Positions 1-56,930 of a stretch of DNA of 59,687 nt are shown here, piece by piece; position 1 is the stretch's first letter, and the number at the start of each line of letters is the position of its first letter. The translations under genes and the position numbers were made by a program. The DNA comes from Patescibacteria group bacterium (GTDB taxonomy: Bacteria; Patescibacteriota; Patescibacteriia; SG8-24), in assembly GCA_018813785.1 (NCBI GenBank), contig JAHJAU010000081.1:1-59687 (forward strand). Reading direction: 5' to 3'. Below the pieces are notes generated by a model that was not told where the DNA came from, did not search any database, and was given only the letters and a program-made list of their open reading frames with translations.

Positions 1-30
1 AAGACGATTAGGCAGATGACCAAGCAATAG
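1..30 (+). CDS. rpmI: 3' end of ribosomal protein L35 gene (partial, continues upstream of window)
   Basis: Frame 1 is open from base 1 to TAG at 28-30 (..KTIRQMTKQ*), ending 1 nt before the rplT start. rpmI-rplT adjacency is the conserved arrangement. Only 9 codons are visible. Confidence 0.35.
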   Translation, partial: KTIRQMTKQ

Positions 31-31
31 T

Positions 32-379
32 ATGCCGAGAGTTAAGCGTGGAAAAATACATCTAAAACGGCGAAAGGGTATCCTTAAACGGACCAAGGGT
101 TTCATGTGGGGTCGTAAGAGCAAGATCAAACTTGCCAAAACTGCGGCTACCAAAGCCGGTGCTTATGCCTACCGTGACCGCCGCAACAAGAAGCGCGTAA
201 TGCGCCGCCTGTGGCAGATTCGCATCAATGCTGCTGCCAGACTGAACGGTCTATCCTACAGCAATCTGATAGATTTGCTCAAAAAGGCCAATGTGACTAT
301 TGATCGAAAGATTTTGTCCAAAATCGCAGCTGATAGACCGGTGACATTTACCAAGATTGTGGAAGCTATTAAGAAGTAA
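32..379 (+). CDS. rplT: 50S ribosomal protein L20
   Basis: 115 aa. MPRVKRG..KRRK..LK..KGF.G..SK..K.A..A..KA..YAYRDRR.KKR..R.LWI.RINAA.R is the canonical L20 sequence pattern. Confidence 0.95.
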   Translation: MPRVKRGKIHLKRRKGILKRTKGFMWGRKSKIKLAKTAATKAGAYAYRDRRNKKRVMRRLWQIRINAAARLNGLSYSNLIDLLKKANVTIDRKILSKIAADRPVTFTKIVEAIKK

Positions 380-5032: not shown

Positions 5033-6280
5033 CTAAGGTAATTTTCGGCGAATAAAAGCCGGAATCTCTAAATCTTCAGCCTCATCAACAGCTGCTGTTA
5101 CAATCTGCTTTTCACCTCTCGCTTTTTTTTCAGTTAGCGGTTTCCGGATAAAGGCGCTAATACCATCGACTGCGTCCCGGACAATATTTTCATGATCCAT
5201 TGATGAGGATTCATCTCTGATCGATTCAAACTCTGCCGCCCGAACTTTTTCCGATTCTTCATCATTTTTTTTGCTAAATCTATCAGCAGCAAAAAAACCG
5301 GAATCAACCTTCTGCTCCAGCCTCCGGCCGCCATTAAATCCGGTAGCGATAACACACACCTTGACCTCGTCTTCCAAGCGTTCATCAATAACTGTGCCAA
5401 AAATAACTTTAGCGTCGCTATCAGCATTGCTGGTAATTAACTTGGCCGCTTCATCAAATTCATGCATAGATAAATCCGGTCCACCAGTAATAGTAAAAAG
5501 AATTCCTTTGGCTCCGTCAATTGAAAGTTCCAGCAATGGACTAGAGATAGCTTGCTTGGCCGCAGCAACCACACGATTCTCTCCGGTCGCCATACCAATA
5601 CCCATTAAAGCTGAGCCAGTATTAGACATAATCGATTTTACATCGGCAAAATCAACATTAACCAGACCCGGAATGGTGATGACTTCAGAGATGCTTTGGA
5701 CACCTTGACGCAAAACATCATCAACAGCATCAAAAGCGTTAACTAATGTTGTCTTCTTGTCGGTAATTGTCAGCACTCGATCATTCGGTATAACAATGAT
5801 CGTATCTACTCGCGAAGCCAAGTCATCGAAAGCTTTTTCGGCAATATTTCGTCTTTGTAAACCCTCAAAGCTAAATGGTTTGGTAACCACAGCTACTGTA
5901 AGTGCACCGCAGTCGCGAGCGATATCAGCTATAACCGGTGAGGCACCACTCCCAGTTCCACCACCTAAGCCGCAGGTAATAAACACCATATCAGCACCAT
6001 TCAATACTTCCCGAATCTCATTTTGACTTTCTTCAGCTGATTGGCGACCAACATCCGGATTCATACCCGCACCAAGACCGCGAGTTATAGATTTACCTAG
6101 TTGTATTTTTTTCGTTGCTTGTGAATTGTGTAGAGCTTGGACATCCGTATTAGCTACGATAAATTCAACACCCTTGATCTTAGATTTGATCATGCGGTTA
6201 ATTGCGGAACCTCCTGAACCACCAACACCAATTACCTTTATTTTGGCGAACGATTCAATTGCGGGCTTTACCTCTGCCAT
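5033..6280 (-). CDS. ftsZ: Cell division protein FtsZ
   Basis: 415 aa. It has [17 protein letters not shown], the tubulin signature [13 protein letters not shown], and the C-terminal peptide [11 protein letters not shown]. Confidence 0.97.
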
Positions 6281-8633: not shown

Positions 8634-9927
8634 CTGCTGCGCCTTCAGTCGACGAACCTTCTTCGATTTGATTAAAAGACGGAGAAGACGGCAGGACAGA
8701 TGTTGCCCCTTCAGCATCGCTCGGTTCGATTATCTTGGCTTCTCCAATAAATTCCAAACTATTGGCCATCATGGATAATGTAACGCGATAACGAATCTTT
8801 AATTCACTGGCCAAATCGTAAGTTAAACCGACCACCATTCCGTCGTTAGAGACAAAAACTGTTCGTCGATCTGGTGTAATAATTTGTTCGTAGCCCTTAC
8901 GATTAATCAAATTCTCAAAACGATCAACTTTGACCAAACCTTCTATCGGAGCTTTAGCAAACCAATCGGCTAATGATTCTTGTGGTGATTTTCGATAAAG
9001 CGTAACTTTAATATTCTCGCTGGTGGCTGAAGTAAATTGAACTGTTTGTTCAGCTGGAATATCTCGAACATTCCAGGACTTAGGTCGATACATCTGGATG
9101 CCATAATCCTCATTGCGATAAACAGTAATCCCTGGATTATCAATCAAGCGAGCGGGATCACGCTTAGCCGGATCAAACAAATTCAAAACTTCATTCAGGT
9201 CAACATAACTGTCGCCATCACTATTGGCGCTATTCGGGTCACTGCCAAAAATCTCATTCTCTTCAACATCAGTTAAACCATCGCTATCGGTATCGAGAGC
9301 TTGTTCCGGCGGTGGTGGTTCGCAATCCTGCGGACAGTTAGCAAACGTCTCGCCTCGATTTTCCTCACACTTATCATCACCACAAACTGGCGGTGGTGGT
9401 TCGCAATCTTTAGGACAAGACTCGAAAGTCTCGCCGGCCTCGCAAGAACGGTCGCCACAAACTGGCGGTGGTGGTTCGCAATCATCAGGACAAGAAAAAT
9501 GATTCTCTGATTTTTCACACTTATCATCACCACAAACTGGCGGTGGTGGTTCGCAATCTTTGGGACAAGACTCAAAAGTCTCTGGCATGCTACACGTGCC
9601 ATCACCACAAACCGCTTTTTGTTTAGAAAAAAACAGAACATAGGCAGCCGTGCCGCCAGCTAAAAGCAAAATAATTATCGCCAATAATACGATTAATACG
9701 CCTAATTTACCCTTCTTGCCCTCGGCTGTAATGTTCGGTTCGGACGATCGTCCTTCGGTGTTCGGCTGACCGGCCGACGACTCCGTTCTTCTGGTCGGTT
9801 TAAGTTTTGCTGGCGCACCATAAAACGCATCGGGGATAACATGGATCTCCGTGTCTTCCTTGCTTGGACCTGATACACCCGAAGGTTTATCCAGCCCTAA
9901 CCCTGATGGTTTTAGTTCATCAACCAT
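8623..9927 (-). CDS. Type II membrane protein with four tandem CGDxxC..CPxDCEPPPPV modules, TSP3-like Asp repeats and a C-terminal globular domain
   Basis: 434 aa. It has a disordered N-terminus and one TM helix (LGVLIVLLAIIILLLAGGTAAYVLFF). Four Cys modules of 25-27 aa follow, then DTDSDGLTDVEE / NSDGDSYVD calcium-binding-type repeats. Confidence 0.8.
   Translation of the reverse strand: MVDELKPSGLGLDKPSGVSGPSKEDTEIHVIPDAFYGAPAKLKPTRRTESSAGQPNTEGRSSEPNITAEGKKGKLGVLIVLLAIIILLLAGGTAAYVLFFSKQKAVCGDGTCSMPETFESCPKDCEPPPPVCGDDKCEKSENHFSCPDDCEPPPPVCGDRSCEAGETFESCPKDCEPPPPVCGDDKCEENRGETFANCPQDCEPPPPEQALDTDSDGLTDVEENEIFGSDPNSANSDGDSYVDLNEVLNLFDPAKRDPARLIDNPGITVYRNEDYGIQMYRPKSWNVRDIPAEQTVQFTSATSENIKVTLYRKSPQESLADWFAKAPIEGLVKVDRFENLINRKGYEQIITPDRRTVFVSNDGMVVGLTYDLASELKIRYRVTLSMMANSLEFIGEAKIIEPSDAEGATSVLPSSPSFNQIEEGSSTEGAADEG
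9290..9612 (-). repeat. In-frame tandem DNA repeat (4 units of 75-81 bp) inside CDS 8623-9927
   Basis: The 20-mer GGCGGTGGTGGTTCGCAATC occurs at 9308, 9389, 9464 and 9539 (plus-strand coordinates). It encodes the CEPPPP ends of the Cys modules. Confidence 0.9.
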
Positions 9928-54390: not shown

Positions 54391-55266
54391 TTAACGAATG
54401 AATAATGCAAAGGCGTAACCAACGATTAAACCAGCTACAATGGGTGGCAGTGCCGGCATGGGTCGACGCAGCTTCTGCTTCAGAAATAAAACGTTCATGA
54501 ACAAAAATCCGACCACTGCCCCAATAACCACCGGCATAGCTGACCTGATTCCTTGAGTTGAAACAACGGAAACTAAAAACAAGACAGGGAGAACTAGATC
54601 ACCAGTGCCCAAAAAAGCATAATCCGGCCGAATACTAACCTTAGAAATTCGGCTCATTAAATTTGCCGGATTAACCGGAAGAATCATGGCAAAAAAAACT
54701 TTTCGCCGCAATAAAGATCGGGCTAATTTTATCATGTGCTTGGTAAAATAAACGGCGATCACATCATAAATGCTTAACAAAACCAAAATAACCAATAAAA
54801 CGACCGGATTAAAACCTGATCCGATAGCGGCTGCCACCCCCGATAAACCAAAAGACACAATTAAATTAAAAACTATAACCGGAGGATTGGTGTAATAAAT
54901 AAATGCACCAACACAAAATATCAACACACCAACCGAAGGGCCAAAGAAGGCATCAGCGATCGAACTGGCACCAACCAAAATAGCCACAGCAAAAAGCGCT
55001 CCCAATAATTTACTTCCGCGAGTTGATCTAACCAAAAACAAAACGAATAAAGTCATCGCGAAAAAGACTACTAAAAAATTTAAAGATGAAAATGACCCCC
55101 GGCTGATTCCGTTGATTCCATTAATCATTGGATCAATTCGGCTAGCAGTGGCGATAGACAAAAAACTTATTAGAAGTAAATAAAACACTCCTTGAATAAC
55201 TATAAAAACCGAGTTTTTATTTTTAATCTTTTGACTTATGGTGGATGGTTCTTGGTTGGCAGACAT
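54391..55266 (-). CDS. Presenilin / signal-peptide-peptidase-like intramembrane aspartyl protease
   Basis: 291 aa with about 8-9 TM segments. All three family signatures are present in the right order: SIYD(168)VIAVYFTKHMIKLA, FLGTGD(223)LVLP, and P(271)ALPP near the C-terminus. Confidence 0.8.
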   Translation of the reverse strand: MSANQEPSTISQKIKNKNSVFIVIQGVFYLLLISFLSIATASRIDPMINGINGISRGSFSSLNFLVVFFAMTLFVLFLVRSTRGSKLLGALFAVAILVGASSIADAFFGPSVGVLIFCVGAFIYYTNPPVIVFNLIVSFGLSGVAAAIGSGFNPVVLLVILVLLSIYDVIAVYFTKHMIKLARSLLRRKVFFAMILPVNPANLMSRISKVSIRPDYAFLGTGDLVLPVLFLVSVVSTQGIRSAMPVVIGAVVGFLFMNVLFLKQKLRRPMPALPPIVAGLIVGYAFALFIR

Positions 55267-55437
55267 GATAAAGATGAAAAAATATAGAAAAATGTGAGGG
55301 CTCTCCCATCAGGTGAATCCGAATATCGGAATATTCAGAATATAAAGAGTTACTATAGTGACCGGAATTAGATATTCGACCAAATCCTACCTGCCTCGCA
55401 TTATCCGACCTTTAGCTTTCCTCAGTATACCAAAAAA

Positions 55438-55461
55438 GACGGCTTTTCAGCCGACCTTTTT
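55438..55461. terminator. Short bidirectional terminator-like hairpin
   Basis: An A6 run, CGGCT (55440-55444) / AGCCG (55449-55453), then a T5 run. On the minus strand it follows the repeat-containing spacer downstream of secY. Confidence 0.45.
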
Positions 55462-55483
55462 ATTTACTAGCTAATTGATGTTT

Positions 55484-55513
55484 GCAGGAAGCGACATGCA
55501 GATCGCTCAGCCT
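55484..55513. repeat. 30-nt direct repeat, copy 1 (GCAGGAAGCGACATGCAGATCGCTCAGCCT)
   Basis: Identical 30-mer at 55611-55640. Internal segments are complementary to 55534-55541, 55552-55558 and 55597-55606. Confidence 0.9.
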
Positions 55514-55610
55514 AAGAAGATCTGGCCAATTTCAGGCTGAGATGAGCTGTGTGTCGCTGGACTAAGTGAGAGCGTGAAGCGCACTGGTGTGGTGCGCTGA
55601 GCGATCGAAC

Positions 55611-55640
55611 GCAGGAAGCGACATGCAGATCGCTCAGCCT
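55611..55640. repeat. 30-nt direct repeat, copy 2
   Basis: Perfect copy of 55484-55513, 127 bp downstream. It ends 12 nt from the secY stop codon. Confidence 0.9.
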
Positions 55641-55652
55641 GGAATTGGCTCC

Positions 55653-56930
55653 TTATAGTTGTTCGTATTCACGCATGGTCAACTGCGAATTTACCTGATT
55701 GACTATCTCAATTGCCACTGATACCACGATCAACAAGCTGGAACCGCCAATCGCCATCGTTGCTGTACCAAGAGATTCTTGCATAATAATCGGCAATACC
55801 GCGATCGTTGCCAAGAAAAACGCGCCAGCCGGCATAATACGGTTGATGGTCCGCTGAATAAACTCAGCTGTTGGTCGGCCTGGACGAATACCCGGAACAT
55901 AACCTCCTTGCTTCTGAATATTATCTGCTACCCGATCCGGATGAAAAATAACGGCCGTGTAAAAATAGGTAAAACCAAATACTAAAACAAAATACAAAAT
56001 ACCGTAAAATAGCTGATTTTGAAACAATCCAATGGTTTTTAGAGACAAATCAGCCAACCATTCAGTCTTAGCCCGCGTAAATAATTGAGCCACCATGGTT
56101 GGAATCAACACAATGGAAATGGCGAAGATAATCGGTATTACACCAGCCATGTTCACCCGCAAAGGCAAGAAAGTCTGAGATCCACCAACTGACCTAGCTC
56201 CACGCATGCGCTTAGCATAAACGATGGGTACATTTCTCTGACCTTCGGTGATAAACACTACACCGGCAACAGTCAAAATCGCCAGCACGGCAAAAGCAGC
56301 CCAGTACACCACCTGTGATGAATCAAAGGTAACCAATGCCTGCTGTAGTGTAGTTGGTAGGTTGGCAATAATGCCCGCGAAGATAAGAATGGAAATACCA
56401 TTACCGATTTTCCGCTCTGAAATAAGCTCACCTAACCACATCAAGAAAATCGTTCCACAAGACATGGTAATCATCATCAACACCAGCTCAAACATGCCTA
56501 AATTTGAAGAAATTATTCCGCTACCAGCCTGTCGAAGCAGAGTGATAATACCGTAAGACTGTAGTAACGCCAGCGGCACTGTGGCCAGTCTAGTATATTG
56601 GTTTATTTTCTCCTGACCGGACTGGCCTTCTTTCTGCATCTCCTCCAGACGCGGAACTATCATCGCGAGAAGCTGAAAGATAATCGAAGCTGTAATATAA
56701 GGACCGACACCCAATGCCACCACGGAGAATGTTTCCATTGCTCCGCCGGAAAACATGTTATAAAGTCCGAGAATTTGATTTGAAGCAAAGTAATCCTTCA
56801 GGGCAACTGTGTCCACCCCAGGAATCGGTATATGCGCTGCTGCCCGAAAAAGAACGAGCATTAACAATATAAAACCAATGCTGTTCCGAAGGTCTTTGGT
56901 CTTCCAGATTTGCTGGAGAGTCTTCATCAT
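55653..56930 (-). CDS. secY: Preprotein translocase subunit SecY
   Basis: 425 aa with 10 TM segments. It has LRNSIGFILLMLVLFR..AHIPIPG, the GISILIFAGI plug/ring region, and GGYVPGIRPGRPT. Confidence 0.95.
   Translation of the reverse strand: MMKTLQQIWKTKDLRNSIGFILLMLVLFRAAAHIPIPGVDTVALKDYFASNQILGLYNMFSGGAMETFSVVALGVGPYITASIIFQLLAMIVPRLEEMQKEGQSGQEKINQYTRLATVPLALLQSYGIITLLRQAGSGIISSNLGMFELVLMMITMSCGTIFLMWLGELISERKIGNGISILIFAGIIANLPTTLQQALVTFDSSQVVYWAAFAVLAILTVAGVVFITEGQRNVPIVYAKRMRGARSVGGSQTFLPLRVNMAGVIPIIFAISIVLIPTMVAQLFTRAKTEWLADLSLKTIGLFQNQLFYGILYFVLVFGFTYFYTAVIFHPDRVADNIQKQGGYVPGIRPGRPTAEFIQRTINRIMPAGAFFLATIAVLPIIMQESLGTATMAIGGSSLLIVVSVAIEIVNQVNSQLTMREYEQL

Follow-up and report, generated by a model that had tools for sequence, protein, structure and literature searches.

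What is the G+C-rich spacer that follows secY on contig JAHJAU010000081.1 of the Patescibacteria assembly GCA_018813785.1, and what does the perfect 30-nt repeat inside it represent? We addressed this question for the whole 59,687-nt stretch (hereafter the window) and for its host assembly, which comprises 1.19 Mb in 84 contigs and comes from a Candidatus Uhrbacteria-like member of the Patescibacteria. A first-pass annotation of the letters alone had read the spacer as an RNA particular to this locus: a switch or attenuator with mutually exclusive pairings, a structured 3′ untranslated region (UTR) or small RNA (sRNA), or a source of two short peptides. The results reported below point elsewhere. 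The spacer probably consists of one full copy, plus a 30-nt partial duplicate, of a dispersed and apparently undescribed family of ~130-nt hairpin repeats of the Patescibacteria, similar in kind to the REP, ERIC, and miniature inverted-repeat transposable element (MITE) families.

The 30-mer, GCAGGAAGCGACATGCAGATCGCTCAGCCT, is indeed present in two exact copies with 0 mismatches (55484-55513 and 55611-55640). No third copy with up to three mismatches occurs in the window, and 0 are expected in shuffled sequences. All of the segments reported as complementary to it were also found, namely AGGCTGAG at 55534-55541, a region containing TGTCGCT at 55544-55558, and GCTGAGCGATC at 55596-55606, as was the inverted repeat AGCGCAC/GTGCGCT at 55578-55598. 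Folding of both strands revealed structure far beyond chance (z = −7.2 on the plus strand and −5.7 on the minus strand) and one dominant hairpin of 131 nt. The pairing segments do not have separate partners, as all of them belong to the 5′ arm or upper stem of this one long hairpin, and the AGCGCAC/GTGCGCT pairing, described before as independent, forms its apical stem-loop. The features of the spacer are as follows.

55522-55652, plus strand: probable full copy of the gene-end hairpin repeat, a rod-like hairpin of 131 nt with 50 bp, 7 G·U pairs, and internal loops rich in purines; its structured strand runs antisense to secY.
55578-55598, plus strand: apical stem-loop AGCGCAC/GTGCGCT, flanked by tandem G·A loops and lying inside the conserved core cGAggCGyAC-loop-GTrCGncGAg.
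55611-55640, plus strand: copy 2 of the 30-mer, integral to the 3′ arm of the hairpin at about positions 90-119 of the family model described below.
55484-55513, plus strand: copy 1 of the 30-mer, a perfect (100% identity) displaced duplicate of the 3′-arm segment, 10 nt 5′ of the hairpin.

The region 55522-55652 folds at −80.2 kcal/mol on the plus strand compared with −57.8 kcal/mol on the secY-sense strand, and its plus-strand internal loops are made of purines and tandem G·A. The G+C fraction of the spacer is 0.55-0.59, against 0.28-0.45 for the flanks. As 30 equals k-1 for k = 31, an assembly artefact was considered and ruled out: the identical spacer sequence is present in four other assemblies encoding an identical SecY, two of them NCBI metagenome-assembled genomes and two ENA MEGAHIT assemblies (k127 and k141). 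The spacer is therefore real DNA.

DNA similarity gave the impression of a single-copy orphan. BLAST-type searches, including blastn-short at word size 7, returned no further copies beyond chance in the host genome or 60 relatives, and an exact 22-mer core had 0 matches, both among 185,579 species genomes and among JGI metagenome contigs. Covariance models overturned this impression. A model of the window's plus-strand hairpin (R1) gave full-length, strand-specific, multi-copy matches in genomes of the same bacterial family. A second model (R2), built from 43 copies of relatives with the window copy excluded, scored the window element at 123.5 bits (E ~1e-27, model positions 1-131, plus strand) and located five more clear copies on other contigs (C numbers) of the host genome (C58:176-305, C36:20933-21063, C45:1-110, C3:1843-1971, and C22:23650-23782), which brings the genome to at least six diverged copies. 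R2 was positive at E ≤ 1e-5 in 29 of 150 relatives, and roughly 100 copies can be located with it. Four copies each were counted in the same-genus genome G001 and in G007, and higher numbers in G016 (22), G022 (13), G020 (10), and G128 (11), the last from another family of the class. In G016, the 5′-arm motif alone occurred 30 times, while a reversed control gave 0 occurrences.

The members are 53-74% identical to one another, and the 30-mer is not common to the family. In the alignments, the loop and apical sequences are conserved and the stems are variable but compensated; the matches are therefore not generic hairpins. The first-pass annotation had proposed a genome-wide search for the 30-mer, many dispersed copies of which would mark a REP/MITE-like repeat. 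The 30-mer itself did not recur, but diverged family members did: the host genome has at least six, and sister genera have as many as 22 per genome. This dispersal exists at the level of the family; the divergence among copies is too great for the 30-mer to be shared. In Rfam 15, the sole match of the window region at E ≤ 1 was a sub-threshold STnc50 (24.5 versus 55 bits), and the loci of seven relatives yielded only a tRNA and a sub-threshold Leu_leader match; no prior description of such hairpins in genomes of the candidate phyla radiation (CPR) was found in Rfam or in the literature searched. In two more distant genomes, only the apical core was matched (model positions 33-100, ~66 nt, at G047:C38:1132-1197 and G114:C78:10930-10994), which suggests that a short form of the element exists there.

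Covariation analysis, likewise proposed at first pass, was run on the family copies, using a 46-row alignment that was fitted to the model structure and whose rows are related to one another. In this alignment, 90.1% of the paired cells could pair, compared with 69.1% after shuffling; 45 of the 50 pairs had changes on both sides; and the covariation score was 0.60, against 0.23 after shuffling and ~0.1 for slid partners. The pairs also distinguish the strands. Four of them are G·U in the majority of copies (32-37 of the 43 copies, and 33-38 of the 46 rows of the covariation alignment), where the opposite strand would have A·C mismatches. Overall, G·U outnumbers A·C by 243 to 48, and by 114 to 47 when the four majority-G·U pairs are left out. 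Of the internal-loop residues, 85% are purines on the model strand, and all six clear copies of the host genome fold better on that strand, by 10-27 kcal/mol. Structural selection acts on the strand that is antisense to secY. Across the class, the core reads GATGAGATG..tGGAg..cGAggCGTAC-loop-GTACGncGAg..agCAGATCGC, and the window copy has the conserved family core GATGAG.. / ..CTGGA.. / cGAggCGyAC-loop-GTrCGncGAg / ..CAGATCGC; the ends of the element read GGCAGRC...GYCTGCC-like. A resemblance of the GAUGAG box to the CUGAUGA core of the hammerhead was rejected, as the element is a rod lacking a three-way junction, the bases before the box disagree with the hammerhead core, and no Rfam ribozyme was matched.

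By an open reading frame (ORF) test, the stop of an opposite-strand ORF lies within 4 nt of the 3′ end of the element in at least 16 of 44 copies of relatives, and reading the junctions by eye added further stop-flush copies, for instance behind the S10 gene in three genomes and behind IF-1. In a second class of placements, the element abuts a reverse-complemented terminator T-tract. Within the window's bacterial family, copies adjoin housekeeping genes on the opposite strand, at 0-9 nt from the stop codon or terminator. The six host-genome copies all obey this rule, those behind SecY (0 nt) and MreB (5 nt) being stop-flush and the other four terminator-flush. The genes abutted encode SecY, MreB, EF-G, S10, IF-1, LepA, ArgRS, TyrRS, ProRS, GyrA, MurF, H+-PPase, and CorA, and several of them sit in ribosomal or translation operons. 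For two of the six host-genome copies, the model strand is the G-rich, majority-coding strand and yet is antisense to the abutted gene. This suggests, for a small sample, that orientation is tied to the abutting gene rather than to the replication strand, and it weakens a replication-strand account of the orientation. We also observed a ACTCCCCAGGCTGAYG motif ~15 nt 5′ of three host-genome hairpin copies (C58:306-335, C3:1813-1842, and C26:16366-16395), a hint that some copies are part of a longer composite unit.

At the window's own locus, the minus-strand gene order is L6, L18, S5, L15, SecY, a presenilin/signal peptide peptidase (SPP)-type protease, Adk, a small P-loop protein, and Map. The features that bear on the spacer are as follows.

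55653-56930, minus strand: secY (Pfam SecY, 4.3e-103), with its TAA stop at 55653-55655, 0 nt from the hairpin.
55438-55461, minus strand: predicted intrinsic terminator of the secY transcription unit, with its stem at 55440-55453.
55424-55432, minus strand: putative extended −10-like box TGGTATACT, directly past the terminator T-tract.
54391-55266, minus strand: presenilin/SPP-type protease gene (Pfam PF06550, 1.4e-14), downstream of secY, presumed to have its own promoter.

A terminator-like hairpin following the element in the gene direction had been noted before and is present. It has an A-run, stem, T-run layout, with T-runs on both strands, and is bidirectional in appearance. The TGGTATACT box, as read from the letters, is presumed to be the promoter of the presenilin/SPP-type gene, which has no structural link to the hairpin element. 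In relatives the layout is the same as in the window, with the secY stop followed by a terminator and then TTTTGGTATAnT, and a TTTTGGTATA[C/A]T motif is kept behind the secY terminator. We note that the terminator T-tract fused to TTTTGGTATA[C/A]T recurs behind secY across the bacterial family (L024, L026, L028, L030, L031, L033, L063, and L064), where T-tract and extended −10-like box make up a compact terminator-promoter junction. The distance from secY stop to terminator is ~25-70 nt in relatives and ~195 nt in the window, where ~170 nt extra lie between the stop and the terminator and box at 55424-55461. The element, lying between the secY stop and the conserved terminator, is presumably part of the secY 3′ UTR.

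Homologous secY-downstream spacers do not support the idea of a locus-specific RNA. Reading by eye, we found no element in the spacers of the 12 relatives closest in secY, among them the same genus and contigs with an 84-89% identical SecY. Among 31 other secY loci, two carry an R2 copy, that of G035 (77.9 bits) and, weakly, that of G005 (31.2 bits; the palindrome at L029); both are antisense to secY and belong to distant relatives. In the G035 copy, the secY stop codon lies inside the lower stem, and this copy is 64% identical to that of the window, no closer than unrelated members (53-74%). The secY and mreB sites have been used repeatedly, across bacterial families. Other, unrelated long GC-rich palindromes lie just after the secY stop or terminator at L027 (G008) and L032 (G015).

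At other sites, shared between sister species, orthologous copies could be compared with their surroundings. The identities of copy and flank were, respectively, 82% and 57% at the rpsJ site, 89% and 65% at a tRNA site, and 77% and 60% at site 4, where third codon positions were 69% identical. The changes between orthologues comprised 12 compensatory doubles, 10 exchanges between Watson-Crick (WC) and G·U pairs, and 3 between WC and A·C pairs. Turnover was also seen. At the rpsJ and fusA sites, the resident had been swapped for a different member (61-64% identity), sometimes with the old 5′ arm left behind. Full copies stand in tandem at L089 and on C7 of G001, partial arm copies lie beside full ones (for example at L105:3921, a duplicated 3′ arm plus gene end), and stop-distal copies were decayed while the stop-proximal copy was intact. 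The extra 30-mer of the window, a part of the 3′ arm on the stop-distal side, matches this pattern of remnants and tandem copies. Because similar arm remnants or tandem copies adjoin other family members, we read copy 1 as the remnant of a tandem or partial duplication.

We hypothesize that the window's copy arrived by insertion between the secY stop and the terminator, which would have lengthened the 3′ UTR by ~170 nt. The perfect 30-mer repeat would then be a recent by-product, left when a tandem duplication, or a second insertion at this gene end, was partly lost again, and we infer that the duplication is not a designed switch. Propagation or maintenance would act on the folded single strand, as single-stranded DNA (ssDNA) or perhaps as antisense RNA. 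On the secY transcript, the reverse complement would form a weaker hairpin (~−58 kcal/mol) right after the stop codon and would serve at most as a 3′-end stabiliser, if it is not simply a passenger.

Several results weigh against this picture of a mobile repeat. The in-place identity of 77-89% points to host-level or structural constraint, for which plain mobile DNA is insufficient. Individual copies of selfish repeats are normally not conserved in place; the conservation seen here exceeds that prediction and leaves room for both a host function and a structural maintenance process (for example, arm-to-arm correction). The covariation statistics are inflated, given the fitted alignment and the relatedness of the copies. 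The antisense rule is not universal, as some copies in more distant genomes lie just upstream of same-strand tRNA, rplK-like, or rpmH-like genes; what all placements have in common is therefore that the 3′ end is flush with a gene boundary. Junctions read showed no consistent target-site duplication or sequence-defined target, and arm-motif scans of five genomes gave no autonomous or split version carrying a gene. No mobilising enzyme was found either. The presence of Y1 transposases (PF01797) does not track the element across relatives: G015 has 5 copies of the element and no Y1, and G021 has Y1 but no copy at E ≤ 1e-5 beyond two weak matches (8.2e-6 and 0.118). The TnpB domain PF07282 was not found in the host genome, which does carry Y1 genes.

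C58:23255-23602, C13:20753-21118, C1:23435-23728, and C1:3645-3971: four Y1 (IS200/IS605-type or RAYT-type) transposase genes, one of them with internal stops.

The flanks of these four genes do not contain the element. Those at C58 and C1:23435 have common flanks and are therefore two copies of one IS200-like element.

A rival explanation places the function in the gene-sense strand, as a host-maintained cis element of the mRNA that protects the 3′ end, marks a processing site between cistrons, or insulates termination, spreading rarely and being selected at each gene end. We regard it as a minor possibility. It would account for the flush placement behind the stops of highly expressed housekeeping genes, several in ribosomal or translation operons, for the conservation of orthologous copies above flanks and third codon positions, for the decay of stop-distal copies beside intact stop-proximal ones, and for an orientation that tracks the abutting gene in the two informative cases of six. 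The structural selection, however, which favors G·U pairs, tandem G·A, and purine loops, acts on the other strand; at the mRNA level, G·U becomes A·C, the loops become pyrimidine mismatches, and the fold loses ~20 kcal/mol. Moreover, many copies lie past the terminator T-tract, where the upstream mRNA should have ended, and some lie upstream of same-strand tRNA or ribosomal protein genes. That same strand preference is what would be expected of a functional single-stranded element of the model strand with a host role, either an antisense RNA that targets the 3′ ends of genes or, in the manner of attC, folded ssDNA that serves as a site for a recombinase, a nuclease, or a replication factor. 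The excess of conserved G·U pairs over A·C, the class-wide purine-loop core, and the in-place substitutions favoring WC-to-G·U over WC-to-A·C changes all agree with it, and a folded antisense strand directly behind ORFs mirrors the geometry of attC. We nevertheless consider it unlikely, as the model strand has no conserved promoter 5′ or terminator 3′ of the element, attC-type R″/R′ core sites are missing, the flanking genes are core housekeeping genes and not cassettes, and no co-occurring enzyme was found.

The readings confined to this locus fare far worse. For a switch, attenuator, or sRNA that uses the duplicated 30-mer to control read-through, it can be said that the element lies between stop codon and terminator and that, with copy 2 blocked, the 5′ arm pairs with copy 1 on both strands. 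The mutually exclusive pairing is thus physically possible, but the alternative fold carries a penalty of 26-30 kcal/mol on each strand, and the terminator stem takes part in neither the dominant nor the alternative fold of either strand. The downstream gene also has its own conserved promoter-like box past the terminator, the spacers of the nearest relatives lack the element, and the hairpin belongs to a dispersed family that sits behind unrelated genes and has no Rfam match. A role in read-through into the downstream gene finds no backing in these results, and the switch as a whole is very improbable. Of the proposal of a structured 3′ UTR or sRNA released after secY, the structured 3′ UTR stands by position; the locus-specific sRNA does not. 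Just as improbable are two plus-strand peptides of 14 and 11 amino acids, both beginning MQIAQP, translated from AGGAAG-N4-ATG modules. Both reading frames exist (MQIAQPKKIWPISG and MQIAQPGIGSL), and a GGGAAG-like purine box is common 5-8 nt before an ATG or GTG, one of which occupies the start column in 34 of the 45 copies. Yet the conservation of these nucleotides is explained by their location in the purine loop and the paired, conserved 3′ arm; the sequence downstream varies by compensatory stem changes and not codon-wise, and in most copies the frame runs antisense into the neighboring gene. No plus-strand promoter or terminator was detectable at the element, and nothing independent backs a coding role. 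The locus-specific readings as a switch, attenuator, or sRNA are unsupported because of the cost of the alternative fold, the lack of any role for the terminator, the absence of a detectable plus-strand promoter or terminator, and an ATG column explained by the stem.

The dispersed hairpin repeat, which we prefer, shares its genome with other palindromic families, located by an inverted-repeat prefilter; no relation of the element to any of them was found. GTAG-headed dispersed palindromes (family A), GTAGCTGCAGAGTTTATCTCTGCCC ... GGGCGGAGGCAAGCTCCGCAGCTAC, occur at C36:25231, C70:1940, C73:3510, C55:7833, C28:7179, C20:3348, and C80:1476, often with a nested CCACGTCGCTCGCGAGCGACGTGG hairpin and sometimes in tandem, with 30-34-nt direct repeats ~100 nt apart; this family looks like a classical REP/REPIN-type family, and a palindrome related to it lies in the SPP 5′ UTR of a relative (L063). 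A four-copy family of 160-nt hairpins (family B), GAGACCTCTGCAAAAGTCGC...GAGGTCTC, is found at C58:~380-540, C4:~5680-5840, C33:~9610-9770, and C42:~8850-9010. It too is far better folded on one strand (for example, −88 versus −68 kcal/mol), and one copy adjoins the C58 gene-end hairpin. The third (family C) consists of CCTGTCACCCTCGACAGG / GGGACAGGTA palindromes, sometimes long near-perfect hairpins, at C63:12478, C1:7036, C8:25071, C13:34966, C45:14169, and C37:303.

Two further observations concern the neighborhood of the presenilin/SPP-type gene. Its 5′ leader contains three tandem 9-mers at 55318-55343 of the window, TCCGAATAT / TCGGAATAT / TCAGAATAT; they are accompanied by inverted repeats that overlap and may represent an operator or a structure of the leader. 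On two JGI contigs with an 89% identical SecY (L057 and L058), the gene is missing and adk directly follows secY; the SPP gene between secY and adk is therefore variably present in the lineage.

Taken together, these results replace an attractive but wrong reading as a secY riboswitch or attenuator with a testable one. They also reveal that CPR genomes, tiny and streamlined as they are, harbor tens of copies of a 130-nt hairpin that BLAST does not detect and Rfam does not list. Elements of this kind are prone to be mistaken for locus-specific regulatory RNAs in genome scans, and covariance models recognise them. The placement flush with the stops or terminators of core genes, together with in-place compensatory conservation opposite the mRNA, is not explained by textbook REP/MITE behavior. 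A more speculative reading, which we hold to be rather unlikely, is that the gene-end hairpins are a maintained, strand-specific, single-stranded element, a folded site in template-strand DNA or an antisense RNA, kept by CPR bacteria flush with the ends of housekeeping genes. If true, they would form a new class of gene-boundary element, with a role for example in recombination or repair targeting, control at the end of transcription units, or antisense control, and the 30-mer duplicate of the window would be a trace of the process that places new copies at the stop codon. The family offers a handle on single-strand DNA and RNA processes and on 3′-end biology in an uncultivated phylum.

How does the element compare with known systems? 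It does not belong with riboswitches and attenuators, as it is absent from the secY spacers of the nearest relatives and its alternative fold never competes with the terminator. The attC sites of integrons are similar in being imperfect palindromes of 57-141 nt behind an ORF stop, with the folding strand antisense, variable in sequence and conserved in structure with unpaired bases. Membership was nonetheless rejected: the ends of the element have no RYYYAAC/GTTRRRY (R″/R′) core sites, its neighbors are housekeeping genes rather than promoterless cassettes in arrays, and no integron integrase context was seen. With MITEs (Correia, RUP, and BOX) and the IS200/IS605-derived PATEs, it has in common that these are short, non-coding, hairpin-capable, multi-copy repeats, polymorphic in insertion between relatives and co-transcribed with their neighbors. 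The inverted arms of a MITE are present, the whole element being a hairpin, but its junctions have no consistent target-site duplication and no matching autonomous insertion sequence was found, and orthologous copies are conserved beyond neutral expectation. REP, BIME, and REPIN sequences resemble it as extragenic palindromes at gene 3′ ends, with hairpin doublets, tandem and mosaic layouts, and a plausible recognition as single strands, and the host genome encodes both Y1 transposases and a separate GTAG-headed REP-like family. The element differs from these in being one 130-nt rod and not a 20-40-nt unit, in lacking a GTAG or CGTC head, and in its relation to the enzyme, since Y1 presence is uncorrelated and no RAYT flanked by the element was found. 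A further parallel is provided by the ERIC/IRU sequences of Enterobacteria, which are imperfect palindromes of ~127 bp. The likeness extends to size, the single long imperfect hairpin, residence in transcribed spacers near stops, strands unequal in fold stability, and patchy occupancy of orthologous sites. No sequence relation was shown, the phylum is another, and no TA target duplication was seen; what sets the present family apart is that its copies are far more diverged, with compensatory changes, and that, for copies from the window's bacterial family, the strand with the better fold is consistently the one antisense to the gene abutted.

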